A stretch of DNA of 64,000 nucleotides, from NCBI GenBank assembly GCA_045531475.1, contig JAZSEB010000024.1:88017-152016 (forward strand), given 5' to 3'. The translations under genes and the position numbers were made by a program. How positions within the stretch are numbered: the stretch's first letter is position 1; the number at the start of each line of letters is the position of its first letter. The stretch comes from Paludibacteraceae bacterium (lineage in GTDB: Bacteria; Bacteroidota; Bacteroidia; Bacteroidales; Paludibacteraceae). Below are positions 582 to 33,445 of this stretch, piece after piece. The notes below the pieces were generated by a model. It did not search any database and was not told the origin of the DNA. It worked only from the letters and a program-made list of their open reading frames with translations.

Positions 582-1400
582 ATGGAAAGGTGCATTCGAT
601 TACATGGTCGATTATTAGATGTCTCTCACCCCAAAGTGATGGCGATTGTTAATTTATCGGCAGATAGTTTTTATACTTCGTGCAATGCTTTCGATGAAGA
701 AGGATTGCTATCTTATGTTGATAATGTGCTAAAAGCGGGAGCAGATATATTAGATATAGGTGCCTGTTCTACACGTCCTAATTCTATTGCTGTAGGTGAA
801 GACGAAGAGTGGTTGCATTTATCGCAAGGACTGAGTGCTATCCGTCACCATTGGTCACATATACCAATATCAGTAGATACATTTCGTTCTGGCATTGCTG
901 AACGCGCCATTCATCATGGAGCTGATATGATAAATGATGTATATGGTGGATGTAAGGACGTGGCCATTTGGGATGTTGTTGCGAAATATAAAGTGCCATA
1001 TGTATTAACACATGCAGTGGAAAATGCACCTCAGGAAGCTTCAAACTTGATTACGAGTCAGGTGTTGCGTTTCATGCAAGAAAAACTTGACTATTTGCAC
1101 CAGCAAGGAGTAGCAGATGTGGTTGTTGACCCAGGTTTTGGTTTTGGTAAGACGTTAGAGCAAAATTATTCATTATTACGTAACTTAGAGATACTGCAAT
1201 CGCTGCATTCGCCAATTTTGGTGGGTATATCACGAAAATCAATGTTGTATAAGCCGCTCCATGCGACGCCGAGTGATGTTATTCATGCTACTGTGGCGGC
1301 CAATACTCTGGCTTTGGAACGTGGTGCGAACATTTTAAGGGTGCATGATATAGATGCAGCAGTACAAGCTATCAAGATATACGAACTCACAAATATGTAG
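582..1400 (+). CDS. folP: Dihydropteroate synthase
   Basis: 272 aa with pterin-binding-domain motifs (NLSADSFY, ILDIGACSTRP, DPGFGFGKT, GISRKS, LRVHD). Confidence 0.9.
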   Translation: MERCIRLHGRLLDVSHPKVMAIVNLSADSFYTSCNAFDEEGLLSYVDNVLKAGADILDIGACSTRPNSIAVGEDEEWLHLSQGLSAIRHHWSHIPISVDTFRSGIAERAIHHGADMINDVYGGCKDVAIWDVVAKYKVPYVLTHAVENAPQEASNLITSQVLRFMQEKLDYLHQQGVADVVVDPGFGFGKTLEQNYSLLRNLEILQSLHSPILVGISRKSMLYKPLHATPSDVIHATVAANTLALERGANILRVHDIDAAVQAIKIYELTNM

Positions 1401-1403
1401 AAT

Positions 1404-2198
1404 ATGTACATAGGGATAAAAGACATAATTGATATTTTGTTGGTTTCAACAATATTATTCGGAGTGTATAGATTGTTGCGTCGTTCGGGAGCTAGCAATC
1501 TTTTTTGGGGAATTTTAGCATTCGTCTTTGCATGGTTATTGGTTAGTTATGTCTTTGACTTGGAATTAACGGGTGTATTATTTGAGCGTTTTGTTAGTGT
1601 GGGAGCGATTGCACTGGTTGTTATTTTTCAAACGGAGATACGCTCATTCTTTTATGGTATCGGAGCGCGTTTTAATATGGAACGCATACGTACACATTGG
1701 TCGAAAACACGCAATGCTGAAGAGGCACAGCGTCAGATTGATTGTATCGTGTTGGCATGTTCTCATATGTCGGCTTCAAAGACAGGCGCACTGATTATCA
1801 TTACTAAGAATCAAGGGTTAAATGAATATGCTGATACTGGCGAGATAGTAGATGCCGCTATCTCTGTGCAAATGATTGAAAATATTTTTTTCAAAAATAC
1901 GCCTCTTCATGATGGGGCAATGATTATTTCATCAGGACGCATATATGCTGCAGCTTGTATTTTACCTGTATCCAAACGACAAGATTTGCCAAAGTCTTAT
2001 GGCCTTCGTCATCGAGCAGCACTAGGATTGGCAGAAAAAACGGATGCAATTGCCATTGTTGTTTCTGAAGAAACGGGTAAGATATCGGTGGCTCAGGGGA
2101 ATACGATAAAAACGGTATCTACCAATGAGTTGGAGCATACATACTTAGCTCCTGCATATGGTGTAGAATATAAAAAGGATAATAATAAAACAAAATAA
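1404..2198 (+). CDS. cdaA: Diadenylate cyclase CdaA (three N-terminal TM helices plus a DAC domain)
   Basis: Hydrophobic N-terminus followed by [46 protein letters not shown]. Lies 4 nt after folP. Confidence 0.85.
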
Positions 2199-2202
2199 AA
2201 TT

Positions 2203-4275
2203 ATGACATTTCAACGAACTCTTGTAACTTCGGCTCTTCCTTATGCCAATGGTCCTGTTCACATTGGACACTTGGCAGGTGTATATGTACCAGCCGATAT
2301 TTATGTGCGCTATCTCCGTTTGAAAGGCGAGAATGTACTTTTTGTGGGTGGTAGCGATGAGCACGGTGTACCTGTTACTATCCGTGCACGCAAAGAAGGT
2401 ATCACCACCCAGCAAGTGGTAGATCGTTATCATCAAATCATCAAAGATTCTTTCGAGGGTTTTGGTATCTCTTTCGATGTCTATTCGCGTACAACAAGCC
2501 AAACGCATCATCAACTTGCTGCTGATTTCTTCCGTCATCTTTATGATAATGGAAAGTTTATCGAACAAACATCAGAGCAGTTCTACGATCCTGAGACTCA
2601 GGAGTTTCTGACAGACCGTAATATCCGTGGTGAATGTCCACGTTGCCATGCTGCAGGAGCATATGGTGATCAATGCGAAAAATGCGGTGCTACATTGTCT
2701 CCAGATGAACTCATTAACCCATACAATGCTATCAATGGTAATCCTCTGACTAAGAAAGAAACCAAACACTGGTATTTGCCGTTGGATCAGTATCAACAAT
2801 GGCTTGAGGAATGGATTCTTCAAGATCACAAAGAGTGGCGTCCAAATGTTTATGGTCAATGTAAATCTTGGTTGGATGGTGGACTCCGTCCACGTGCAGT
2901 AACGCGTGATTTGGATTGGGGTATTCCAGTGCCCGTGGAGGGAGCAGAAGGCAAAGTACTTTATGTGTGGTTTGATGCGCCTATTGGCTATATTTCTAAC
3001 ACCAAAGAGCTATGCGATGCTAAACCAGAATACGGCAATTGGGAAACTTGGTGGAAAGACCCATCTACTCGTTTGATTCATTTTATTGGTAAGGATAATA
3101 TTGTTTTCCATTGTATTGTATTCCCTACAATGCTTAAGGCAGAAGGTTCATATATATTACCAGATAACGTACCATCTAATGAGTTTCTCAATCTTGAAGG
3201 TGACAAGATTTCTACCTCTCGCAATTGGGCAGTATGGCTCAATGAATATTTGGTAGATTTCCCTGGTAAGCAAGATGTATTGCGTTATGTACTTACTGCT
3301 AATGCGCCAGAAACCAAGGATAACGATTTCACTTGGGCAGATTTCCAAGCACGCAACAATAACGAGCTAGTGGCTATCTATGGAAACTTTGTCAATCGTG
3401 CGTTGGTGCTGACCAAGAAGTATTTTGATGGGAAAGTGCCTGCTGCTGGCGTTTTCAACGAATACGACCAAGCTACTATTGCAGAGTTCCAAAATGTTAA
3501 AATAGAAGTAGAAAAACTGCTCAACGATTTCCGTTTCCGTGATGCTCAAAAGGAAGCGATGAATTTAGCCCGTATAGGTAATAAGTACTTGGCAGATACT
3601 GAGCCATGGAAAGTGGCAAAAACGGATATGGATCGTACTGCTACAATCTTGCACTTGGCATTGCAAATCGCTGCTAATCTGAGTATTGTTTTTGAGCCAT
3701 TCTTGCCTTTCTCATCAGCCAAACTACGTCAAATGCTCTCGATGTCCGAACTTAAGTGGGAGGAGTTGGGTAATATCGATTTGCTCAAAGAAGGTCAAGC
3801 CCTTGGCGAGATTAGTCTGCTCTTCGAGAAGATAGAGGATGTCGCTATCCAAGCGCAACTCGATCGACTTGCTACTATCAAGGCTGCCAATGAGGAGGCT
3901 GAGAAGCAAGAAGCTCTCCGCAACTGGCAACCTGAGCCAATTAAAGAAGCTACCAATATAGATGAATTTGGCAAGATGGATATTCGCGTAGCAACCGTAC
4001 TTGATTGTCAACCTGTTAAGAAATCTGAACGTTTGCTTCAATTCCGTCTTGATGATGGAATGGGTGGTCGTACTATCCTTTCGGGTATTGCACAAAGTTA
4101 TCCAGATCCATCCGTGTTGATTGGCAAGCAAATCTTATTCATTGCTAATTTTCCTCCACGTAAGATGATGGGTATCGAATCGCAGGGTATGATTCTTTCT
4201 GCGGTAGATGCAGATGGCAAACTGGTTGTGACCACTGTTACTGCACCCGTTAAGAATGGTAGTCAAGTAGGATAA
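2203..4275 (+). CDS. metG: Methionine--tRNA ligase with a C-terminal tRNA-binding (EMAP-like) domain
   Basis: 690 aa. HIGH-type motif (PVHIGHLAG), Zn knuckle [18 protein letters not shown] (KMSKS-like), C-terminal DIRVATV..GMILSA. Confidence 0.95.
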
Positions 4276-4293
4276 ATAACCTGATATATAAAC

Positions 4294-4327
4294 AAAAAAT
4301 GAGGTCGTTCGACCTCATTTTTTTATA
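4294..4327. terminator. Bidirectional intrinsic terminator between convergent metG and the helicase gene
   Basis: Stem AATGAGGTC (4298-4306), loop GTTC, stem GACCTCATT (4311-4319), flanked by an A-run on the left and a T-run on the right. Confidence 0.7.
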
Positions 4328-6584
4328 TTCGCTCTAGTTTCGCATAGGTAACGAGCAATGTTTTCTTACCAACTTGATCAAATTGTATATCAATCTTATC
4401 GTTATCGTTTTCTCGATATACCGCTAGCACTGTTCCATTGCCGAATACACGATGGTTGACGCGATCATCTTTTTGCCATTCCGAACGAATAGCTTTCTTC
4501 TTTCCTTTTTCTTGCATACCGGTTGTACGAGTGAGGTGTGATGGGCCAGATATGCTAGGCATGTTGCTTACTACCTCCTTCTTGCTGCTGGATGACATAG
4601 GTTTTCGGGTAGGTTTTAATCCGTCGGTTTGTAGTAAGAATTGATTATCAATATCTTTCAGGAAACGCGAAGGAGTAGTGAAGTTCACTTGTCCATTGCG
4701 GAATCGTTGTCGTGCCCACATGAGGTAACAACGTTCCATGCTACGGGTAATGGCTACATACAATAATCGGCGTTCTTCTTCAATCTCACGCACGGTTTGG
4801 CAGAAAGCAGAAGGGAATAAATTCTCTTCCAGACCAACGATAAAATTAGTGTTAAATTCCAAACCTTTTGCTGCGTGAATAGTAAGTAGGGTAACACGCG
4901 CTTGGGTATCGTCAAGATGTTCATCTTGATCAGTAAGTAAGCTAACTTCCGATAGAAAATCTGCGATAGGTGTGAAGTCTATTCCTTCTTTTTTGCGGCG
5001 TTCGCAGAACTCATGGATACTGCTCAACATTTCTTCTAAGTTTTCCCAACGAGCAATACCTTCTTGAGTAGTATCAGCTTTTGCCTCGCGCATGATGCCA
5101 CTTTCGGTTAGTATATCTTTGGCAAAGTCATAGGCATTTTTTGTTGCGGATTCTTCTGCGTAGCGATGAATCATTTGTGCAAACTCCAGCACTTTTTTCT
5201 GGGTGGCAACGGATAATTCTGTGCCCAAGTTCTCTGGAGCTGAAGCTATGTTCATCAGCGAACATTTATTGCTACGGGCAGCATCATATAGTTTATTAAT
5301 AGTGGTCTCTCCAATGCCTCGTGTAGGGAAGTTTACAATACGCAAGAATGCCTCGTCATCGGATAGGTTGGTTGCTAGTCGCAAGTATCCCAACGCATCT
5401 TTAATTTCCTTTCGTTGGTAGAAACTAGTACCTCCGTATATACGATATGGAATGGATAGTTGGCGTAGCTCATCCTCTATAACGCGCGATTGAGCGTTCG
5501 TACGATACATCACTGCTATATCGTCGTAACTCAGGGCGCTGGCATTAAGGCGCATGAGCAGATGTATTTGTTGAGCTACTGCTTTGGCTTCATCGCGGTC
5601 ACTCATGTATGTAGCAAGAGATATCCGTTCGCCTATTCGCAGTTCCGAATAAACGTTTTTTTGTATTTGCCCTTTGTTGTGTCTGATTAGGGAGTTGGCA
5701 GCATTCACGATGGTTTGTGTAGAACGATAGTTTCTCTCCAGTTTGAATAGTTTAGCATCGCTATAGCCCTTCTGAAAGTTCAGAATATTGCTGATATCTG
5801 CACCGCGGAACGAATAAATCGACTGTGCATCATCTCCCACTACGCATACGCGGTTCTCAGGCGCCGCTAGTTGCTTAACCAGCAGATATTGACTATAGTT
5901 AGTATCTTGATACTCATCTACCAACACATATTCAAACATCTCTTGATATTTCTTCAGTATATCCTCATGCTTTGCGAATAGCTGATTGGTTTTCATTAGC
6001 AGGTCGTCAAAATCCATAGCATTTGCGGCTTTCAGTCTTCGGTTGTATTCGATATAGATACGTACCATATCGTACATCTTCTCAAAGCGGTCTCTCATAA
6101 GATAATCGCGATTGGCTGCGTATTGATCAGGACCTTGTAATAGGTTCTTAGCCATAGATATTCTATTGTGTACTACTGATGCTTTGTACACTTTGTCATC
6201 CAAACGAAAATCTTTGATGATATGCTTAATTACTGATTTGGAATCTGTAGTGTCATACACACTAAAATCGCGTGTGTAACCCAATACTTCGGCTTCTTGG
6301 CGGAGCATGCGAAGGCACATCGAGTGGAATGTACCCATCCATAAATATCGGGCCGTATGGTCGCCTACTAGTTGACTAATACGATTTTTCATTTCTCGTG
6401 CAGCTTTGTTGGTAAAGGTCAATGCTAATATGCGGCTTGCTGCTACACCTTGTTCCAGCAGATATGCAATCTTATAAGTTAGCACACGTGTCTTGCCAGA
6501 TCCTGCACCTGCAATCACCAAGTGAGGACCATCGTTGTACAATACAGCTTCTTGTTGAGAAGGGTTAAGTTCAGAGAGATTCAT
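4323..6584 (-). CDS. pcrA: ATP-dependent DNA helicase, UvrD/PcrA/Rep family (SF1)
   Basis: 753 aa. Walker A AGAGSGKT, DEYQDTN, FRGA, YRS, TIHAAKGLEF, VAITR. Confidence 0.85.
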   Translation of the reverse strand: MNLSELNPSQQEAVLYNDGPHLVIAGAGSGKTRVLTYKIAYLLEQGVAASRILALTFTNKAAREMKNRISQLVGDHTARYLWMGTFHSMCLRMLRQEAEVLGYTRDFSVYDTTDSKSVIKHIIKDFRLDDKVYKASVVHNRISMAKNLLQGPDQYAANRDYLMRDRFEKMYDMVRIYIEYNRRLKAANAMDFDDLLMKTNQLFAKHEDILKKYQEMFEYVLVDEYQDTNYSQYLLVKQLAAPENRVCVVGDDAQSIYSFRGADISNILNFQKGYSDAKLFKLERNYRSTQTIVNAANSLIRHNKGQIQKNVYSELRIGERISLATYMSDRDEAKAVAQQIHLLMRLNASALSYDDIAVMYRTNAQSRVIEDELRQLSIPYRIYGGTSFYQRKEIKDALGYLRLATNLSDDEAFLRIVNFPTRGIGETTINKLYDAARSNKCSLMNIASAPENLGTELSVATQKKVLEFAQMIHRYAEESATKNAYDFAKDILTESGIMREAKADTTQEGIARWENLEEMLSSIHEFCERRKKEGIDFTPIADFLSEVSLLTDQDEHLDDTQARVTLLTIHAAKGLEFNTNFIVGLEENLFPSAFCQTVREIEEERRLLYVAITRSMERCYLMWARQRFRNGQVNFTTPSRFLKDIDNQFLLQTDGLKPTRKPMSSSSKKEVVSNMPSISGPSHLTRTTGMQEKGKKKAIRSEWQKDDRVNHRVFGNGTVLAVYRENDNDKIDIQFDQVGKKTLLVTYAKLERI

Positions 6585-6718: not shown

Positions 6719-8077
6719 ATGTTGCCTACCGATTTTATAGAAAATCTTCATGAACTGTTGTCTCCTGTGGAGGTGCAGCAGTTGTGTCAAGCATTAGAGA
6801 CAACGCCTTCTGTTTCTATCCGACTAAACGACAAGGTGGAGTATCTCACTTTTGATGCGGACACCGATGAAGTTCCATGGCATGAAGATGGCTATTATCT
6901 CAGCCAACGCCCTCCATTTACTTTAGACCCTCTATTCCATGCGGGCTGCTATTATGTGCAAGAAGCTAGTAGCATGTTCGTGGAAAAGGTACTGCAGCAA
7001 TATGTCTCACGCGATAGCGTCGTGTTGGATCTTTGTGCGGCGCCAGGTGGAAAATCCACATTGATAAGTCAATATCTGGGCCGTGAGGGAATGCTAGTGA
7101 GCAACGAGGTGGTTCGCTCTCGTGTTTTTGTGTTGTCTGAGAACATCCAGAAATGGGGTAATGGAAATACGGTTGTCACTCATAACCAATCCGCAGATTT
7201 CGGAACACGACTACCAGGCGTATTTGATTGTGTGTTAGTGGACGCTCCTTGTTCGGGCGAAGGAATGTTTCGCAAGGATGACGTGGCAATAGACGAATGG
7301 AGCGAAGCAAATGTAGAGGCATGTGTGGCTCGCCAGCGTAAAATCTTGCAAGATGTATGGGATGCATTGCGTCCAGGAGGCATATTAATATACTCTACTT
7401 GCACGTTCAATCCTTGGGAGAACGAAGATAATGCTAATTGGATAGCCGAGTCTTTGGGTGCGGATATACTGGAAGTGCCCATTATGTCTGAATGGGGCAT
7501 TACGCTGGGTAATCCGGGCTATCACTTCTATCCTCATAAAACGCGTGGCGAAGGGTTTTATATTTGTGTCTTGCGCAAGCACAACAAAGGAGTGGTGGCA
7601 GATAACCGACCATTTAAGAGTCGCCTTCCTAAATTCAAACCTCAACCTGCAACGGCAGTTGAAGGAAAAGAAATCATGCGTCAGTGGCTGCACCATCCCG
7701 ATTGGTGGGAGTTGCGTCAGCAAGATAGGTTCGTAGTCGCATATCCTGCTAAATACAAAGAGTTTATCTGCATTTTGAGCAAGCAATTTATATGCATCAG
7801 TACGGGCTTTGGCTTGGGCGAGATTCGTGGCAAGAATATGGTGCCACAACATTCTTTGGCTATGGTGAAGGATTTCCGCAAGGAGGCATTCCCGCATATC
7901 GAGCTAACGCTGGAACAGGCACTTAGTTACTTGCGAACTGAAGCTCTTTCTTTTCCCGATGCACCTTTAGGTGTATTGTTGGTTACTTATCAACAAGTGC
8001 CACTGGGCTTTGTGAAAAATGTTGGCAATCATTGCAACAATCTATATCCGAAAGAATGGAGAATTCGTAAACTATGA
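6719..8077 (+). CDS. RNA cytosine-C5 methyltransferase, NOL1/NOP2/Sun family (RsmF-like)
   Basis: SAM-binding LDLCAAPGGKS, catalytic DAPCSGEGM and YSTCT motifs. Start moved from the TTG at 6695 to the ATG at 6719. Confidence 0.8.
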   Translation: MLPTDFIENLHELLSPVEVQQLCQALETTPSVSIRLNDKVEYLTFDADTDEVPWHEDGYYLSQRPPFTLDPLFHAGCYYVQEASSMFVEKVLQQYVSRDSVVLDLCAAPGGKSTLISQYLGREGMLVSNEVVRSRVFVLSENIQKWGNGNTVVTHNQSADFGTRLPGVFDCVLVDAPCSGEGMFRKDDVAIDEWSEANVEACVARQRKILQDVWDALRPGGILIYSTCTFNPWENEDNANWIAESLGADILEVPIMSEWGITLGNPGYHFYPHKTRGEGFYICVLRKHNKGVVADNRPFKSRLPKFKPQPATAVEGKEIMRQWLHHPDWWELRQQDRFVVAYPAKYKEFICILSKQFICISTGFGLGEIRGKNMVPQHSLAMVKDFRKEAFPHIELTLEQALSYLRTEALSFPDAPLGVLLVTYQQVPLGFVKNVGNHCNNLYPKEWRIRKL

Positions 8078-21624: not shown

Positions 21625-21698
21625 AAATGTAGGATAATTAAGTGATTAATATGTTGGGATAAAATGGTCTTCGATGGTGGCAGTCCTGCTATTTTATC

Positions 21699-22586
21699 TT
21701 ATCTGCGTGCACCAGTAATACTATAGGTTTGCTCTCCGTATATAATAAGTAGTTCTCCGTTGCGAATTATCTTTTGTGTGTTGGTAGTTGGTGCTATTAT
21801 ATTGTGCAATGCTGTAGGTTGCTCACTATTAATGGTCAAGCCATCTAGTGCAAAATACATCGGGGTGTTTGCTCCGAAATCCCCCATATCGGTCGTAGTC
21901 ATGCGAAAACTCAATCCTGCCGCCTTGCCTAAGGATTTTAGTGATACCTTCTCCCATCCGTTATTCTTCTTTCCGTCTACCGCCAAATAGTATGTGATAC
22001 TTCCAATTTCTTGCAAGTCGCTATCTAATGCGCTTATAATCAATGACAACGTGTCTTGCTCGCTGAATACGTTCGCATTAAATACCCCACCATGAGCAAT
22101 AGCTTCCATCGTATTGCTATTCTGGCAGATATATATGTATTCTGGATAGTAATAATGGTCGAAAAGAATGGTATTTGATGAATAACCTAAAGACTCTGTA
22201 ACCCATTCTGAGAAGTAGCCTATCACATAAGGGGTTCCCACTCCAGCTACTCCGCCTTTAGCCACGCAGCCAAATACATTGGCCGTGTCTTGTGATACCT
22301 TTGATAAGGTAAATCCTTCCCAACTCATACCATTGTACGAATTCTGGCTTGGTAGATGCGAAAGCGCAAAATGTCCATCATTGACATATATTACTCGATA
22401 ACTATCACTATCATTATAAGTATGTTCCCATACATCGGTACAGTCGTAGTATCCATCACCTGATGTGCTGTTATATACCAATGGGATAGAGAGCACATCT
22501 TCTGCCGTACTCAAATCCATGGTAATCACTTCTGCCGATGCTGTCAAAGCTACGATTGATGCAAAAAGAAATATAAGACGTTTCAT
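21699..22586 (-). CDS. Secreted DUF4465-like protein (paralog b)
   Basis: 295 aa. Signal peptide ..ALTASA. ..MSWEGFTLSKVS.. and ..MYFALDGLTIN resemble DUF4465. C-terminal KIIRNGELLIIYGEQTYSITG is shared with 22773..23738. Confidence 0.55.
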   Translation of the reverse strand: MKRLIFLFASIVALTASAEVITMDLSTAEDVLSIPLVYNSTSGDGYYDCTDVWEHTYNDSDSYRVIYVNDGHFALSHLPSQNSYNGMSWEGFTLSKVSQDTANVFGCVAKGGVAGVGTPYVIGYFSEWVTESLGYSSNTILFDHYYYPEYIYICQNSNTMEAIAHGGVFNANVFSEQDTLSLIISALDSDLQEIGSITYYLAVDGKKNNGWEKVSLKSLGKAAGLSFRMTTTDMGDFGANTPMYFALDGLTINSEQPTALHNIIAPTTNTQKIIRNGELLIIYGEQTYSITGARR

Positions 22587-22604
22587 GATTTATCAATTTG
22601 CCGA

Positions 22605-22612
22605 CAAAGGTA
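22605..22612 (-). promoter_or_regulatory. -7 promoter box (TACCTTTG) for DUF4465-like paralog b
   Basis: Exact motif 19 nt upstream of the ATG at 22586. Confidence 0.5.
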
Positions 22613-22706
22613 CAATAAAAAACGCACATTTGCAAGAAGTTTGAATGAAAGTTGAAAATCGCTCGCTATTTTTTTGCAAATGTGCTATTTTCTCCTCTAG
22701 CTTTTA

Positions 22707-22765
22707 GCGGAAGATAAGCGGAAGATAAGCGGAAGATAAGCCGAAGATAGCTTATCTTGAAGCGG
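22707..22765. repeat. Tandem array (GCGGAAGATAA)x3 plus degenerate units, 11-nt unit
   Basis: Three perfect units (22707-22739), then GCCGAAGATAG and a near-palindrome AAGATAGCTTATCTT. Confidence 0.9.
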
Positions 22766-22772
22766 ATGGATT

Positions 22773-23738
22773 TTATAGTTGTTTTCCGTCTATAGTATAT
22801 GTTTTTCCATCACGAATAATCAATATCTGGCCATTGCGAAGAACTTTCTTGCAATCAGTATCCTTAGATGGACTAAATGTGTTTGGCAATGCAGATAAAT
22901 CGTTTTTATCAAAGCGAACCGCTACATCATCGTAAGCGAAATAGCCAGGAGCATTCAATCCCCAGTCGCCATAGAGATCGCGCGAACCAATCATATTAAA
23001 GCCTACGGATACCACCTCGCCCAATACAGATAAATCCCATTTTTGCCATGTAGTCACTACACTATCTAGACCCTGGAACAGGGTAAATGATGTGCTTCCT
23101 ACTTCATTGCCTTGGGCATCGTAGCCAATTGCCAAAATTCTGAAAGTTGTTGTGTCATTAGCAGGAGGATTAAAACCATCGCCATGCACAAGCGAGTTGA
23201 GCACGTAGCAGATATTAGTGACATACATGTGGTCTATCACACGTGCTTTGCCATCTGCGAAAGTGATTTTCTGCAATTCTGGGCACATTCCTGTAGTAGA
23301 ATTATATTCATCTACATAACCCATATGCACGCAGAAATTCTTTGATCCATTATTGCCACCTACAAGGTTGGCGAACTGTAGTTCGTACCATCCCCAAATA
23401 CCCTCTGGCAAGTCCTCTGGTGCATAACCCGGGTTGGTGAAGTTGGAGATAGCATGTCCTCCGCTCCAATATGGTGCTGTAAAACTGTGAGTTAACATTG
23501 TGTTGTTTTCGTCACACCAAGTGTAAACGCCGCCAGAGGTGTAGGTTAGCGTACCGTTGTACTGCGCATCGTCCACGAGGTCGGACCATGTAGAGATGGT
23601 CTTACCGGCATAGTCGAGGGTATAAGGCGCAAACTTGGCATCTGCATCCTCGAATGTTAGGGTTCGTAACTCGTAGTCCTCAGCCATAAGGGCTACATTC
23701 ATCAGGCATAAAGCCGCAAAAAAGAATGATTTTTTCAT
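22773..23738 (-). CDS. Secreted DUF4465-like protein (paralog a)
   Basis: 321 aa with a signal peptide. LRTLTFED.., ..GGHAISNF.., ..GYFAYDDVAVRF. C-terminal KVLRNGQILIIRDGKTYTIDG. Lies downstream of cobalamin riboswitch 1. Confidence 0.6.
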   Translation of the reverse strand: MKKSFFFAALCLMNVALMAEDYELRTLTFEDADAKFAPYTLDYAGKTISTWSDLVDDAQYNGTLTYTSGGVYTWCDENNTMLTHSFTAPYWSGGHAISNFTNPGYAPEDLPEGIWGWYELQFANLVGGNNGSKNFCVHMGYVDEYNSTTGMCPELQKITFADGKARVIDHMYVTNICYVLNSLVHGDGFNPPANDTTTFRILAIGYDAQGNEVGSTSFTLFQGLDSVVTTWQKWDLSVLGEVVSVGFNMIGSRDLYGDWGLNAPGYFAYDDVAVRFDKNDLSALPNTFSPSKDTDCKKVLRNGQILIIRDGKTYTIDGKQL

Positions 23739-23772
23739 GTTGTTTGTTGTTTAAAATGGTTATACAAAAATG

Positions 23773-23812
23773 GTTTAACATTGTTCAACAGTAGTTCAAC
23801 ATTGTTCAACGA
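23773..23812. repeat. Short direct repeat AACATTGTTCAAC x2 in the leader of the DUF4465-like gene
   Basis: tttAACATTGTTCAACagtagttcAACATTGTTCAACga, read directly. Confidence 0.8.
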
Positions 23813-24039
23813 TTATTTGGTTTACGTGTATAACCACACCTCCCCGACCATCTACTTCGAATTTTCCCAAATGCAAAGTAACATGGCAGGATGATGGTCA
23901 AGGGTGTGTGGATAGGCGTTTTGACCCCCGAGAAACACACTGACCATTGGATACAACAAACGGGTGCTTGACCAATCTATCAACCACCTATACGCGTACA
24001 TGCGTACCATAAATACTATTGAAAACCTTTGCGTCATTG

Positions 24040-24240
24040 TCGTTGGCTCGATTCCCCGAGAGCGTTCAACTTCGTCAACATTTTTGTTGACGGCACGCAG
24101 CAGGTCTTCTGACTTATCGCTCCTTTGTTCTGCCTTCCCAACCTACTATAGGTCAGTGACTTTCAAGATATTGAACATTGGATTGCGAATCACAGCAGCG
24201 GGACTGTATAGGAATTACACCTATTTCCCTTGACTGAATG
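24040..24240 (-). promoter_or_regulatory. Cobalamin (B12) riboswitch 1
   Basis: Minus strand reads ..AAGGGAAataGGTGtaAtTCC..CAGtCCCGCTGCTGTga..GTCACTG..GGGAAGGC..gataAGTCAGAAGACCTGC (B12 box). About 85% identical by eye to riboswitch 2. Confidence 0.85.
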
Positions 24241-24245
24241 CGTTG

Positions 24246-24253
24246 CAAAGGTA
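24246..24253 (-). promoter_or_regulatory. -7 promoter box (TACCTTTG) driving riboswitch 1
   Basis: Exact motif immediately upstream of the aptamer. Confidence 0.55.
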
Positions 24254-24336
24254 CAACTTTTTTCTATTTTGTGCAAATAAAACGAAAGAAAAATGAAAAT
24301 TTGCAATCTTTTTTTGCAGATTCATATATTTTTCTG

Positions 24337-30063: not shown

Positions 30064-31132
30064 AGTTTTTTGCATCTGTAACATATATATCACCATTATA
30101 AGGATTGACTTGTATACCATATGGAATCTTAATCTCTTGTTCCGTTCCGTCTGTAATAAAATGTTCGGAAACGAGTGTTTGTTTTCGGATGTCAAAAATG
30201 CCATATGTTATTTGATTTGACATAGTCTGTTCGCTCCAATGTGTTCCATAAAAATACATACTATCACCACAAATTACCATCTCTGAAACAGCTGGTGCTT
30301 TAGCCATGGGCAATATTTCTTTGGATATGAGTGAGAAGCATGTAAGTATAGGTTGAAAGTCTTTATAATCTCCGCGAGATGTAATCCACAACTGACTATA
30401 TTGGTCTTGACGCATGCGGTGAGGATTGAGGCATACGGGTATTTTTTGTACTTGACGGAAATCTTTGAGCGAAACAACTGACATAGTGGAATCATAGTTG
30501 GGCGCTCTATATCCTCCTGAGTTAACTACGTATAGATATTCTCCATTAATCACTAATTCCTCGGGTTGATAGCCAACGGTCACTTTGCGAGTAATTTGCA
30601 ACGTGGCAGTATCAATCTCAAATATCGCACCTAACTGAGCATTCGGATCAATGCTCACTGGCCCAACGTACGAACTAACATATACTTTCCCCTCGTGAAA
30701 ACAGATGTATCGGCAATTAGGAATGTCCACTTGACCAATTCTGCGACAAGTACGGGCGTCCATCACCTCCACTTTGTGCGAGCAGTTGATGACTGCATAA
30801 AGTCGGTTGCCATAGACTTGAATGTCATTGCCCACATCGCCTAACTCCTTTATTACATTCGGATTGCGCTCGCCATAGATATTACGGATATAACAACCAT
30901 TGCAGAAATCAAGGTAGTCAATAGTAGCTTTGTTGCTGCCCATATTGCCTTCGTTGAGCAGGTACATACCAATGGGCTCGTTAGGTGCAAAACTGCTTAA
31001 TTCTCTCGGTTCCATTGGCAAAACCTCATACTCCGCAGGGAAGGTAATCTCCTCGCTACGACAACCCATTAGACCAATAGCCAATAGCCAATATCCAAGA
31101 ATCCAAATCAATATGCTATACTTACCGTACAT
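29960..31132 (-). CDS. Beta-propeller surface lipoprotein (YncE-like / BtuG-like)
   Basis: Lipobox LMGC. Repeated ..LYVVNSGG.. and ..IYVTDAKNY.. propeller-blade motifs. Lies immediately downstream of btuB, as BtuG does in Bacteroides. Confidence 0.6.
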   Translation of the reverse strand: MYGKYSILIWILGYWLLAIGLMGCRSEEITFPAEYEVLPMEPRELSSFAPNEPIGMYLLNEGNMGSNKATIDYLDFCNGCYIRNIYGERNPNVIKELGDVGNDIQVYGNRLYAVINCSHKVEVMDARTCRRIGQVDIPNCRYICFHEGKVYVSSYVGPVSIDPNAQLGAIFEIDTATLQITRKVTVGYQPEELVINGEYLYVVNSGGYRAPNYDSTMSVVSLKDFRQVQKIPVCLNPHRMRQDQYSQLWITSRGDYKDFQPILTCFSLISKEILPMAKAPAVSEMVICGDSMYFYGTHWSEQTMSNQITYGIFDIRKQTLVSEHFITDGTEQEIKIPYGIQVNPYNGDIYVTDAKNYVSSGQLHCYSREGKRKWSVRTGDIPAHMCFVYR

Positions 31133-33207
31133 TTATAATTTCGTTTTGGCATTGGATAGTTGAGAATCACATCATAATCTTGTGATAGCAGATTATTCAC
31201 ATCAAGTGCCACGCGCAGCGTAAATAATCTCCTACTTTTAACCTCTGCCCTTTCAGCATTAACTTTACATATATCCCATTCGCCGAATAAACTAAGGTCG
31301 TGCGTATACCATGGTTGGGTATAATTATACAAAATATTCTCTTGTTGGTTATAACGTTCGCCAACGTAAATGAAACTATAGTTCAGTCCATACTGCATCC
31401 AATCATTTTGCCAACCAAACATACCTACTGCACTTCCCGAATGCCATGGGATATAAGGAATCTGGTCGCCATAATAGGTGTCGTTAGGGTCGGTAACATC
31501 GATAGCCGTTTGATAGGTGTATTGCATTTTGGCGGTGAGATAGAAGTCCATCGGCAACACAAAATGCAATTGTGCATTCACATCTAAACCATTTATTTTT
31601 ACTAGTCCAAGATTGAGCATCGTCCAACGGAATTGTTGCCCTTTTGGATATGCGATAATCTTATCGGATATACGGTTGTAGTAGTAATCAGCATTGATGC
31701 GAAACTCCGAACCGCGCTTCTCTGCCATGCGGAATGGCTGTGTGAAACTCAAACCCACGTTATGTTGTTTTGCCAATTCGGGCTTGAGATAAGCATTGCC
31801 CATGTCTGTATAGTAAAGATCGTTGAAAGTGGGATAACGGTAACTCTGTTTGTAGAATGCATTTAATCGAAGATCAATGAGTTGTGTAGGGCGATAAGAT
31901 AGGAAGAATGCAGGTGTCCACTTTGCTTCGTGTGTATTATTTTTTGCTGCAGGCTGATTGGTCTTGCTCTTTGAAGTAGGTTGTTGATCATTTACAAATG
32001 TTCCAAGCACACTAGCCTGTATCCGCAAATAATTTTTCACGTTAATAGCAGTAGCTGCACTTAGCCAATGTGTCCATCGGTGAGTTGACAAGAACATGCT
32101 AAGTTGGTTATATTGTATATCGTATGCTGCACTCACATCCCACCAGTCAAAAATACATACCTTATGTGACATAGTAAAATAGAACTCTTGTTGTAGGTAT
32201 TGATTTTCCACTCGAATGAGTTTATCGTCATTGTTGATATATCGTGTATAATCATTAGCATACTTCATGTTTGCTCGCACGGACCAACGATTGTATAATT
32301 CATCCTGCCATGTAACTTGTACAAAGGAGTTGCGATCCCACAAACGCTCACCATTGCGCCACACATTATTTACAATTGCACCAGGTACTCCTCGCTCTGA
32401 GTTGTAGTGATATAATTGTAGTTTCCAAAATCCAGTATTACTATAGTAATGATTGAGTGCTGTTTCCACTCGAATAGCATTAATATCACCGTTCTGGCGA
32501 ATGGCTGTGGTATCATATGCCACCTCACCTGATGGTGTAACTCGCCTATAACGGAAAGGATATTTGCCGTCGGAAGAAATGAGTTCCGCGTTTGCAGTGA
32601 GTGACATTGTTTCACTTAAACGAATATCGAATAATACACTTGGGTTAATGAGCGCAAAACTTCCAGCGCGCATTTGTGCTTTCACGTTAAAAGATTTTTC
32701 CCCTTCGAAGCGTGGTCGGCGGGTAGTTAAATAAATACTTCCTGCTGCGCCAAACTCGCGAGCAGATTGCCAAATGTCTGACTTTTGTCCATTGTATAAT
32801 TGAATTTCTTCAATGTTCTCAAGAGAATATTTTCCAAGGTCAATCTGTCCGTTTTGTGCATTGCCAAGCTGTACACCATTGTAATATACGCCCATGTGGT
32901 TAGTACCCATACTGCGGATATTTACTGTCTTCAATCCACCTACTCCTCCATAATCTTTGATTTGAACACCAGAGAAATAGCGAATGGCGTCGGCTACACT
33001 GAGGGCATTCATTTTCTTGAGTTGTACGCCCGCAAGTGTCTGAGGGATAATGATATCCTTTTCTTTGACGCGGGCGGTAATAGTGTATTCCTCCAACTCT
33101 AAGTGGCGATAAATGGAATCAAGATACAACGAATCGGCGGCATTGTTTTGAGAGAATGCTGCCAAGCACGAGAGTGCGAAAAGCCATATGAGAAACCGTC
33201 TGTTCAT
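31108..33207 (-). CDS. btuB: TonB-dependent outer-membrane receptor for cobalamin
   Basis: 699 aa with a signal peptide, plug-domain motifs (..AIRYFSGVQI.., NIRSMG) and a C-terminal aromatic (..TVSIAY). Directly preceded by cobalamin riboswitch 2. Confidence 0.85.
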   Translation of the reverse strand: MNRRFLIWLFALSCLAAFSQNNAADSLYLDSIYRHLELEEYTITARVKEKDIIIPQTLAGVQLKKMNALSVADAIRYFSGVQIKDYGGVGGLKTVNIRSMGTNHMGVYYNGVQLGNAQNGQIDLGKYSLENIEEIQLYNGQKSDIWQSAREFGAAGSIYLTTRRPRFEGEKSFNVKAQMRAGSFALINPSVLFDIRLSETMSLTANAELISSDGKYPFRYRRVTPSGEVAYDTTAIRQNGDINAIRVETALNHYYSNTGFWKLQLYHYNSERGVPGAIVNNVWRNGERLWDRNSFVQVTWQDELYNRWSVRANMKYANDYTRYINNDDKLIRVENQYLQQEFYFTMSHKVCIFDWWDVSAAYDIQYNQLSMFLSTHRWTHWLSAATAINVKNYLRIQASVLGTFVNDQQPTSKSKTNQPAAKNNTHEAKWTPAFFLSYRPTQLIDLRLNAFYKQSYRYPTFNDLYYTDMGNAYLKPELAKQHNVGLSFTQPFRMAEKRGSEFRINADYYYNRISDKIIAYPKGQQFRWTMLNLGLVKINGLDVNAQLHFVLPMDFYLTAKMQYTYQTAIDVTDPNDTYYGDQIPYIPWHSGSAVGMFGWQNDWMQYGLNYSFIYVGERYNQQENILYNYTQPWYTHDLSLFGEWDICKVNAERAEVKSRRLFTLRVALDVNNLLSQDYDVILNYPMPKRNYKCTVSIAY

Positions 33208-33209
33208 GT

Positions 33210-33400
33210 CTTAAGCCCTATACCACGAGAGCGTTCAACAAATGCATGTAGCAGGTCTTCTGACTTATCGCTCCTTTTGTTCGGCCTTCCCACCTTAGAG
33301 GCAGTGACCTAAGAGATAGTGAACATCGGATTGCGAATCACAGCAGCGGGTCTGTGCAGGATTTTCACCTGCTTCCCTTAGCGGGTCCCCGACGAGCCTC
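33210..33400 (-). promoter_or_regulatory. Cobalamin (B12) riboswitch 2
   Basis: Minus strand reads ..AAGGGAAGCAGGTGAAAATCCTGCACAGACCCGCTGCTGTGA..GTCACTGCC..GGGAAGGCC..GATAAGTCAGAAGACCTGC. The btuB ATG lies about 45 nt after the B12 box. Confidence 0.9.
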
Positions 33401-33437
33401 GTGGGCGAGGGGGGGTGCTCTTTAACTAAATGCGGTG

Positions 33438-33445
33438 CAAAGGTA
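33438..33445 (-). promoter_or_regulatory. -7 promoter box (TACCTTTG) driving riboswitch 2 and the btu operon
   Basis: Exact motif, with a TTTG -33 element 20 nt upstream. Confidence 0.6.

Follow-up and report, generated by a model that had tools for sequence, protein, structure and literature searches.

The 64,000-nucleotide stretch of Paludibacteraceae DNA analysed here (positions 88,017 to 152,016 of contig JAZSEB010000024.1, assembly GCA_045531475.1; hereafter the window) contains, between a cobalamin riboswitch (riboswitch 1) and the gene for a secreted BtuJ-type protein with a DUF4465 domain (J1), a folded leader RNA of about 240 nucleotides (nt) that carries a short open reading frame (ORF). 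By sequence comparison this leader is a well supported conserved element, which belongs to no curated family and has not been described previously. We propose, with a probability of roughly 55%, that it acts as a relay, in which the riboswitch would gate translation of the leader ORF and this translation would decide the expression of J1. The features are listed in Table 1.

Riboswitch 1 covers positions 1–189 of the RF00174 model in the cmscan match, with the P2 hairpin missing from its aptamer. A second cobalamin riboswitch in the window (riboswitch 2) heads a full uptake operon on the same strand, encoding a TonB-dependent receptor (BtuB), a DUF5074 beta-propeller (BtuG-like), a PKD-domain protein, BtuF, BtuC, BtuD and a DUF2284 protein. 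The two riboswitches share an identical core, CCCGCTGCTGTGATTCGCAATCC, and an identical B12-box region, the B12-box and core sequences AGTCAGAAGACCTGC and CCCGCTGCTGTG of riboswitch 1 being those of the btuB switch. The similarity extends through a hairpin, a GAACGCTCTCG(G/T)GG element (with one mismatch, GTGG, in riboswitch 2), the ATG and about eight codons past it. An earlier note on this DNA had described the two as paralogues, and both the RF00174 matches and the alignment agree; of its figures for the distance between element and ATG (19 and 18 nt), the one-base difference stands, while the measured distances are 16 nt for riboswitch 1 and 15 nt for riboswitch 2. As that note had also said, no TonB receptor follows riboswitch 1 in the window: the order is the leader ORF, J1, an array of four 11-mers, a promoter box, a second DUF4465 gene (J2), a 74-nt gap and the gene for a lipoprotein of 446 amino acids. 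Riboswitch 1 has a -7 promoter box of the Bacteroidetes type, TACCTTTG, which occupies the same position in 13 of 13 aligned relatives, and the pattern search finds such boxes in the window at the two places given in Table 1 and at 33438–33445. In a survey of DUF4465 genes, which the earlier note had proposed, RF00174 was matched on the same strand upstream of the J1 orthologues in all 13 close relatives scanned with upstream DNA and in 11 of 11 more distant DUF4465 loci from Alistipes, Rikenellaceae, Muribaculaceae and Bacteroidaceae. The variable hairpin that follows P1 is replaced in relatives by ACCAAC..GTTGGT or by insertions of 100–150 nt (alignment A1). Judged by its covariance-model match, its core and its synteny, riboswitch 1 is a genuine cobalamin riboswitch and probably a working one.

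The leader is present in 41 Paludibacteraceae loci, 22 of them genome loci found with an nhmmer profile and 19 metagenome loci found by an exact-pattern scan. The relatives are ruminant-gut Paludibacteraceae metagenome-assembled genomes; loci are given L numbers below. Aptamer and leader are located upstream of the J1 orthologue in every relative with upstream DNA; the distance from the aptamer to the J1 start ranges from 290 to 474 nt, of which the first 240 nt or so are almost invariant. The median DNA identity to the window is 92% for the leader, against 75% for the adjacent J1 coding sequence. An Rfam search of 23650–24300 at a relaxed threshold (E 10) returned only the riboswitch and a noise match (greA leader, E 7.3).

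The window copy of the leader folds with -81.8 kcal/mol (z -2.67). With 20 aligned sequences, RNAalifold predicts 64 pairs, with 97.2% of the cells paired; 17 of these pairs show compensatory changes, compared to 5.1 +/- 1.7 in shuffled alignments (0 of 500 reaching the observed number) and 1–4 in slid controls. With 35 sequences, 63 cells are changed on both sides, compared to 23.5 +/- 3.6 in shuffles (again 0 of 500), and the covariation score is 0.185, compared to 0.126 when shuffled and 0.03–0.05 in slid controls. Three helices have good covariation support: a hairpin inside the ORF (alignment A4, columns 86–107), the main helix formed by segments S2 and S3, in which CG, AU and GC pairs are swapped across subtypes, and an inner hairpin just 5' of S3. 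The hairpin preceding the ORF, invariant in all 35 copies, stops 1 nt before the leader AUG, and a homologous hairpin is located 15 nt before the btuB AUG behind riboswitch 2; it is presumed to be the ligand-controlled platform hairpin (P13-like). S3 is followed by UUAUACACG or UUAAUAC, and no intrinsic terminator (a GC-rich hairpin with a U tract) is predicted in 23740–24080 or after J1. The C/G ratio is 1.5–2.1 over 23953–23854 only, and reaches 2.1 over S2 plus the bulge, in a stretch that is partly paired in S2:S3.

An alternative pairing of S1 with S2 is compatible in 93.8% of the cells; an antiterminator-type switch built on it is not claimed as proven, as it comes with no independent compensatory change. 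A closing helix of positions 1–9 with 251–260, predicted on 20 sequences, was lost on 35 and was dropped. The spacer between leader and J1 varies among relatives (alignment A1), its GTTGAACAAT repeat being swapped for other modules, such as a CCCCGAAAAATC..GATTTTTGGGG hairpin. The heptamer GTTGAAC of the repeat region also opens the invariant platform hairpin (at 24070), and GUUGAAC is complementary to GUUCAA in the aptamer (about 24176–24171), a pairing that is unproven.

All 37 distinct complete copies keep the frame open from the leader AUG, over 50–66 codons, and shuffled sequences stay open with a P of about 0.04 per copy. The open frame spans at least five diverged subtypes with insertions and deletions (indels). 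In the L044 type, non-triplet indels sum to a kept frame, while in the L007 and L038 types indels make a new stop just 5' of S3, the abutment being kept despite a 14-nt deletion; in most copies the stop lies between -1 and +5 nt from S3. The product has 61 amino acids in most copies, with MT(Q/D)RFSI and PDHHPAM as recurrent motifs. Homology to the btuB start that follows riboswitch 2 covers the leader AUG and the first eight or so codons, in accordance with the resemblance of MTQRFSIVF to MNRRFLIWLF that the earlier note had reported for this ORF, and the AUG also matches one that, in L001, L003 and L097, leads in frame into a BtuG-like lipoprotein. Because the same AUG is a real gene start in btuB and in these three loci, the leader AUG is a bona fide start elsewhere. 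These observations suggest that it is the translation of the ORF that is selected for, and not its peptide.

In the relay model, the start codon directly next to the platform hairpin is that of a short leader ORF and not that of a structural gene. When corrinoid is scarce, the AUG would be free, and ribosomes would cross the C-rich S2 as far as the stop codon that touches S3. Translation would keep the leader unfolded and covered, and RNA polymerase would continue into J1, the product of which presumably supplies the BtuB-BtuG transporter, whose genes lie 1 kb upstream. When corrinoid is bound, the AUG would be occluded and the untranslated leader would fold, forming the S2:S3 helix, the inner hairpin and the invariant bulge, and the transcript would end or decay before J1. 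Rho-dependent polarity, acting on the C-rich stretch once it is naked, is the likeliest route; alternatively, S2:S3 could serve as a ribosome-sensitive terminator. The start region of J1 is unstructured and A-rich, a property conserved in all relatives (alignment A1), so control must act at the level of the transcript.

The RNA sequencing data are assembler contigs. One contig from an RNA library, matching 23666–23888 with 0 mismatches, joins leader and J1, so that the two can share one RNA. In runs X25 and X30 (presumed to be RNA), fragments of 31–51 nt from the 3' end of the riboswitch and the platform hairpin (24017–24126) occur at a depth of 100–450, and J1 at a depth of 3–4; the deep fragments may come from many species that share the sequence, or from an abundant, stable leader RNA.

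Several points weigh against the relay. Variable sites number 10, 17 and 16 of 61 at the first, second and third codon positions, which is no third-position excess, and the differences within the ORF mostly change the residue. The ORF is nowhere called as a gene and has no homologue in 5.8 billion predicted proteins. Early stops are present in L002 and L102, and in L017 and L088 the stop falls 72–83 nt before a displaced S3 (about 110 nt further downstream in L017). The S1:S2 pairing and the AUG:S1 helix show no independent covariation or double changes, and no conserved complement that could act as a kissing-loop partner of the platform hairpin loop, UCGGGGAAUC, was seen by eye in the aptamer. 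The C-rich stretch is short for a Rho utilization (rut) site, and translation of the ORF is inferred from sequence comparison. An apparent five-fold drop in depth past S3 is given no weight here, because conservation across species confounds it.

The same facts bear on the possibility that the leader works purely as RNA, with S1, S2 and S3 forming a long-range switch, a non-canonical terminator or a processing site, and with the frame as a by-product of conservation and coding descent. Covariation reflects selection on structure, the missing codon-position signature, the early stops and the absence of gene calls all fit this explanation, and several copies have a second open frame across part of the leader. 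It does not account well for a frame that stays open through the diverged indel subtypes (L044, L038, L090 and L017 types), for which the joint chance is estimated at about 1e-3, for the stop that still abuts S3 after the 14-nt deletion, or for a spacing between AUG and platform hairpin that is exactly that of real gene starts. We consider it unlikely, but of real weight. That the ORF encodes a functional small protein is hardly credible. Its prevailing length and the two recurrent motifs are conserved, but the substitutions are mostly non-synonymous, the carboxy-terminal third is replaced or deleted in several subtypes, and those residues that are conserved are encoded by RNA segments that are paired or invariant; besides lacking homologues among predicted proteins, the 61-residue sequence has no match in Pfam or NCBIfam.

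The leader might also sense a second signal, as a tandem aptamer or as an RNA bound by protein, and combine it with B12; another corrinoid, a lower ligand or a regulatory protein would be examples of such a signal. A multi-helix RNA of about 200 nt with an invariant unpaired CCUGCCAUGU bulge and a UCGGGGAAUC loop would suit such a role, as does the lack of an Rfam match for the leader. However, the gene context points to no ligand other than those of B12 capture, the invariant loop sits in a hairpin common to the plain btuB switch, and the open frame is left unexplained; this possibility is improbable.

Over its first 115 nt or so, the leader shows homology to the 5' end of the btuG-like gene that a riboswitch gates in L001 and L003 (nhmmer E 5.8e-10, and alignment), and the peptide of the L044/L087 type is still similar to a decayed lipoprotein signal peptide (BLASTP E 4e-4). 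The leader is thus an old 5' gene stub, now reused and under strong constraint, which probably stems from the start of a lipoprotein gene. The earlier note had instead suggested a btuB deletion, and its most literal form, a recent deletion that left a decaying 5' stub and placed a four-gene operon (ORF, J1, J2 and the 446-residue protein gene) under direct riboswitch control, is very improbable. It draws on the eight btuB-like codons, on the lack of a predicted terminator after J1, which would permit read-through into J2, and on L092, where the leader is followed by a J1-like and then a J2-like gene. Against it, when the ORF is aligned to the 5' end of btuB, nothing btuB-like is found past about codon 29; a leader that is conserved as given above in 41 loci is under strong purifying selection; and J2 and the 446-residue protein gene have their own promoter and occur free of a riboswitch in L081 and L105/L106. 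Moreover, the leader also heads operons for a PKD protein, a BtuG-like protein, a BtuB-like receptor and a DUF4465 protein (L038, L041–L043, L089, L093, L095, L098 and L099), and is therefore no mark of transporter loss. What stands of the suggestion is a 5' stub in kind, neither recent nor from the body of btuB.

In L001 (12740–12930), L003 (6850–7053) and L097 (about 7230–7320), all on the minus strand, an orthologue of riboswitch 2 has no btuB behind it, and the gated AUG plus 15 codons, MTNCFPYDCRYANAY, run in frame into the signal peptide of the BtuG-like lipoprotein. L097 has no btuB within 6 kb upstream and contains a btuB-less operon for BtuG, PKD protein, BtuFCD and DUF2284, with the lipoprotein extended at its amino-terminus. 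The extension in these loci recalls the 35-residue extension annotated on BT_1486 of Bacteroides thetaiotaomicron, which may be a related feature by analogy. A tandem arrangement is found in L093 (28–2311 and 2633–5986) and L099 (2–4093 and 5648–8211), where directly after a btuB-btuG-PKD operon comes a PKD-BtuG-BtuB operon headed by another riboswitch with its leader, similar to the two-riboswitch operon 1 of B. thetaiotaomicron.

More generally, we tentatively suggest, at rather less than even odds, that a gated leader ORF acting as relay is an undescribed class of riboswitch expression platform and a general rule for recruiting genes. If so, the B12 aptamer in Bacteroidota would gate only one fixed AUG context, to which genes could be attached by two routes. 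The gated AUG may be fused in frame before a lipoprotein signal peptide, as in the L001-type BtuG and possibly BT_1486, or the stub of a former 5' gene may remain as a stand-alone translated leader, in which ribosome traffic sets termination at S2:S3. The loci of Alistipes DUF4465 lipoproteins (L029, L032, L021, L025 and L028) have 150–220 nt between aptamer and gene, with a conserved AUG, GCGAATGGGC, about 16 nt past the aptamer and a conserved hairpin, GTTAAAG..ACGGAGAATGAC..CTTTTAAC, about 10 nt before the gene start. The short frames of these leaders have neither a constant length nor a constant end, and for this reason the leaders are left outside the relay model; they are a different long-range expression platform.

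Table 1. Features of the window (riboswitch 1, its leader, the genes that follow it, and riboswitch 2)
Feature	Coordinates	Strand	Basis or remark
Cobalamin riboswitch 1, aptamer (RF00174)	24082..24253	-	cmscan, 85.9 bits (gathering score 31.5), E 9e-20
-7 promoter box TACCTTTG of riboswitch 1	24246..24253	-	pattern search
Variable hairpin after P1, GTCAAC AAAAAT GTTGAC	24074..24091	-	alignment A1
Conserved structured leader RNA, about 240 nt	23831..24070	-	nhmmer, pattern scan, covariation, fold
Invariant hairpin GUUG-aac-GCUC-ucggggaauc-GAGC-caa-CGAC (presumed platform hairpin)	24039..24070	-	RNAalifold; invariant in 35/35 copies
Leader ORF, 61 codons, MTQRFSIVF...	23852..24037	-	stop TAG at 23852–23854, its G being the first base of S3
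Segment S1, AATGGTCAGTGTGT	23935..23948	-	RNAalifold; pairs with AUG region or S2
Segment S2, CCACACACCCTTGACCATC, C-rich 5' arm of main helix	23893..23911	-	covariation
Unpaired bulge A(N)CCUGCCAUGU, near-invariant, separating S2 from inner hairpin	23881..23892	-	alignment A4
Segment S3, GATGGTCGGGGAGGTGTGG, 3' arm of main helix	23834..23852	-	covariation
GTTGAACAAT tandem repeat (x3.7), between leader and J1 start	23773..23810	-	Tandem Repeats Finder (TRF), alignment A1
J1, secreted BtuJ-type (DUF4465) protein, 321 amino acids	22773..23738	-	PF14717, 122.8 bits, E 2.6e-35
Carboxy-terminal tail of J1	22776–22850	-	sequence shared with J2
11-mer tandem array (x4), cassette 3' edge	22706..22749	-	TRF score 81
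Cassette of about 1.67 kb (promoter, riboswitch, leader, J1, 11-mer array)	22639..24309	-	blastn, gap relative to L081
-7 box TACCTTTG of J2/446-residue protein unit, riboswitch-independent	22605..22612	-	pattern search; kept in riboswitch-less L081
J2, divergent DUF4465 protein, 295 amino acids	21699..22586	-	PF14717, 79.8 bits, E 4e-22
Carboxy-terminal tail of J2	21702–21775	-	sequence shared with J1
DUF4832-like lipoprotein, 446 amino acids	20284..21624	-	names and domains of homologues; 1778 homologues
Cobalamin riboswitch 2 (RF00174)	33233..33416	-	77.9 bits
TonB-dependent receptor gene btuB	31108–33207	-	start MNRRFLIWLF at 33207

J1 and J2 match PF14717 well above its cut-off of 25 bits. 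DUF4465 is the BtuJ family (PF14717, IPR027828), of which BtuJ1, BtuJ2 and six to eight distant members bind B12 (PMC13398666; PMC13616437; bioRxiv 10.1101/2025.07.31.667871). Crystal structures are available (9FCT, 9I2L and 9HMU), and the binding tyrosines are located in the HI loop, (N/G)TPAYF, and at the amino-terminus of the DE-loop helix (PMC13398666). The AlphaFold2 model of J1, made with 28 sequences, has a predicted local distance difference test score (pLDDT) of 80.2, and its best fold matches in Foldseek are BtuJ2 (9I2L) and BtuJ1 (9FCT, 9QPM), with E values of 1e-12 to 1e-14. The top set as a whole (9I2L, 9FCT, 9QPM, 9HMU, 4JQR and 4E9K) has probability 1.0, template modelling scores by target of 0.65–0.74 and E values of 1e-10 to 1e-14. 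J1 and its orthologues keep the motifs GGHAISN, IDHMYVTNxxY and PxYFAYDDVAVR, and the tyrosines at the binding positions of J1, Tyr266 in NAPGYF and Tyr178 in NICY, are conserved across orthologues. From sequence and model, B12 binding by J1 is well founded. The secreted DUF4465-like protein that had been noted behind the ORF is thus supported by domain match and signal peptide, and its proposed part in corrinoid capture agrees with the family's activity; the module is not new, having been published as BtuJ1 and BtuJ2 (PDB entries 9FCT and 9I2L; PMC13398666, PMC13616437), and a riboswitch with a BtuJ-type binder is an ordinary arrangement, already described.

Both J1 (cleavage at MKKSFFFAALCLMNVALMA/ED) and J2 (..ALTASA/EV) have a signal peptide of the signal peptidase I (SPI) type and no canonical lipobox; a lipobox followed by acidic residues is present in the Alistipes DUF4465 homologues. 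J1, J2 and all the Paludibacteraceae orthologues, which are without a lipobox, share a carboxy-terminal tail of about 24 residues, K.(I/L)RNG(Q/E)(I/L)LI.RDGKTY...G. Among the proteins of the window it is confined to J1 and J2, it is too short for a carboxy-terminal domain of the type IX secretion system (T9SS), and it may be an anchoring or sorting signal. On the protein side, the window adds only this non-lipidated, tail-bearing BtuJ variant from ruminant-gut Paludibacteraceae.

J2 has sequence matches in the PDB to 4E9K, 9QPM and 9FCT. It keeps the HI-loop tyrosine (NTPMYF), the GGHAISN and helix-tyrosine motifs being missing, and a J2 orthologue likewise has only the HI-loop tyrosine; from sequence, B12 binding is less certain for J2 than for J1. 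The 446-residue protein, which the earlier note had called a DUF4832-like lipoprotein, has no match in Pfam or NCBIfam at E<0.01 (only DUF4874 at E 0.11), and the name rests on close homologues, one of which (P0056, 64% identical) carries PF16116 and another (P0058, 65% identical) is named a DUF4832 protein. Other features given there, the 11-mer array, the second promoter and the second DUF4465 paralogue, were recovered, and the pattern search likewise finds no TACCTTTG box in the 74-nt gap (21625–21698) before the last gene.

Alignment with L081 delimits the riboswitch module. Using blastn, positions 181–981 of L081 correspond to 25113–24310 of the window and positions 1011–5613 to 22638–18004, and the intervening 1.67 kb are absent from L081, where the order is patatin, J2-like protein, 446-residue protein, dehydroquinate (DHQ) synthase, thioredoxin and Na-H exchanger. 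In the relatives nearest by J1, the cassette occupies other sites, for example facing the DUF2284 gene at the end of the btu operon in convergent orientation, and the next genes past J1 are on the opposite strand where checked (L016 and L017; L001, L003, L004 and L009). Tandem arrays of 8–11-mers are found at or near the cassette edges, GCTTATCTTCC in the window and CATCGCCT or CTCTACACT types in relatives, downstream of J1 in L011–L015 and upstream of the riboswitch in L005 and L012–L014.

The J2-like gene is paired with that of the 446-residue protein in L081 and L105/L106, and not in L083/L084 or L107/L108. The pair of J2-type and DUF4832-like genes has been seen in three genomic contexts (the window; L081, 1022–3364; L105, 3083–5332), always without a riboswitch of its own. 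More distant homologues of the 446-residue protein (72–75% identical) are located among housekeeping or glycosyltransferase genes. Since J2 and the 446-residue protein gene have their own conserved promoter and occur without riboswitch or J1 in L081 and L105/L106, the four genes are not one designed operon, and the B12-controlled unit proposed in the earlier note, comprising both DUF4465 genes and the last gene, does not hold. On this comparison the pair is an older, separately promoted unit beside which the cassette was placed, and would receive at most read-through from the riboswitch promoter. The 446-residue protein would be co-transcribed with J2, with a link to B12 that is unproven; the function of the pair may have nothing to do with B12, or the two may form a unit for constitutive capture.

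The closest known system is that of the btu operons of B. thetaiotaomicron, which encode BtuJ1 (BT1491) and BtuJ2 (BT1957), and where the first riboswitch of operon 1 precedes btuK1-btuK2-btuH1 (PMC13616437; bioRxiv 10.1101/2025.07.31.667871; PMC13398666). There, as in the window, the genes under the control of a cobalamin riboswitch are those of accessory proteins that bind corrinoid at the surface or outside the cell, no transporter gene comes directly after the riboswitch, the DUF4465 proteins have an augmented beta-jellyroll fold (in J1 according to the model), and a BtuB-BtuG-BtuFCD operon with its own paralogous riboswitch is nearby. The B. thetaiotaomicron BtuJ proteins have a lipobox and are displayed on the surface or on vesicles, whereas J1 and J2 have the SPI-type signal peptide and the carboxy-terminal tail; no counterpart of the ORF-bearing leader has been described in that species.

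How cobalamin riboswitches exert control in Bacteroidota is unsettled, both translational repression and premature termination being found in the literature. The leader offers a directly testable model, in which ligand sensing would be coupled to downstream transcription by the translation of a leader frame. It also illustrates how a riboswitch module, copied as a 1.7-kb cassette, can bring further genes under its control by way of an old 5' gene stub put to new use. For annotators, an amino-terminal extension on a lipoprotein gene close to a riboswitch may have a regulatory role and need not be an error.

In Bacteroidota, translation starts without the help of a Shine-Dalgarno sequence. In enterobacteria, the Mg2+-sensing mgtA leader with its mgtL frame and the ribB, mgtA and thiM riboswitches are reportedly subject to Rho-dependent termination. 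As in those systems, the ligand-sensing leader in our model would decide the translation of an upstream frame or start, and untranslated RNA would be exposed to early termination. The window differs in phylum and in its ligand, B12, with Rho only proposed here, and its long ORF (50–66 codons) runs across all of the structured region, down to the foot of a covarying helix. With the trp leader and tnaC attenuators it shares a short upstream leader ORF and possibly competing pairings (the AUG region with S1 and S2 with S3, versus S1 with S2), and with tnaC a stop codon adjoining the regulatory element. Unlike these attenuators, it has no regulatory codons, no conserved stalling peptide and no U-tract terminator, and its input would be a riboswitch that gates initiation rather than the speed of the ribosome. 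The system as a whole is a known one with a new form of expression platform, and it is the regulatory side that is new.

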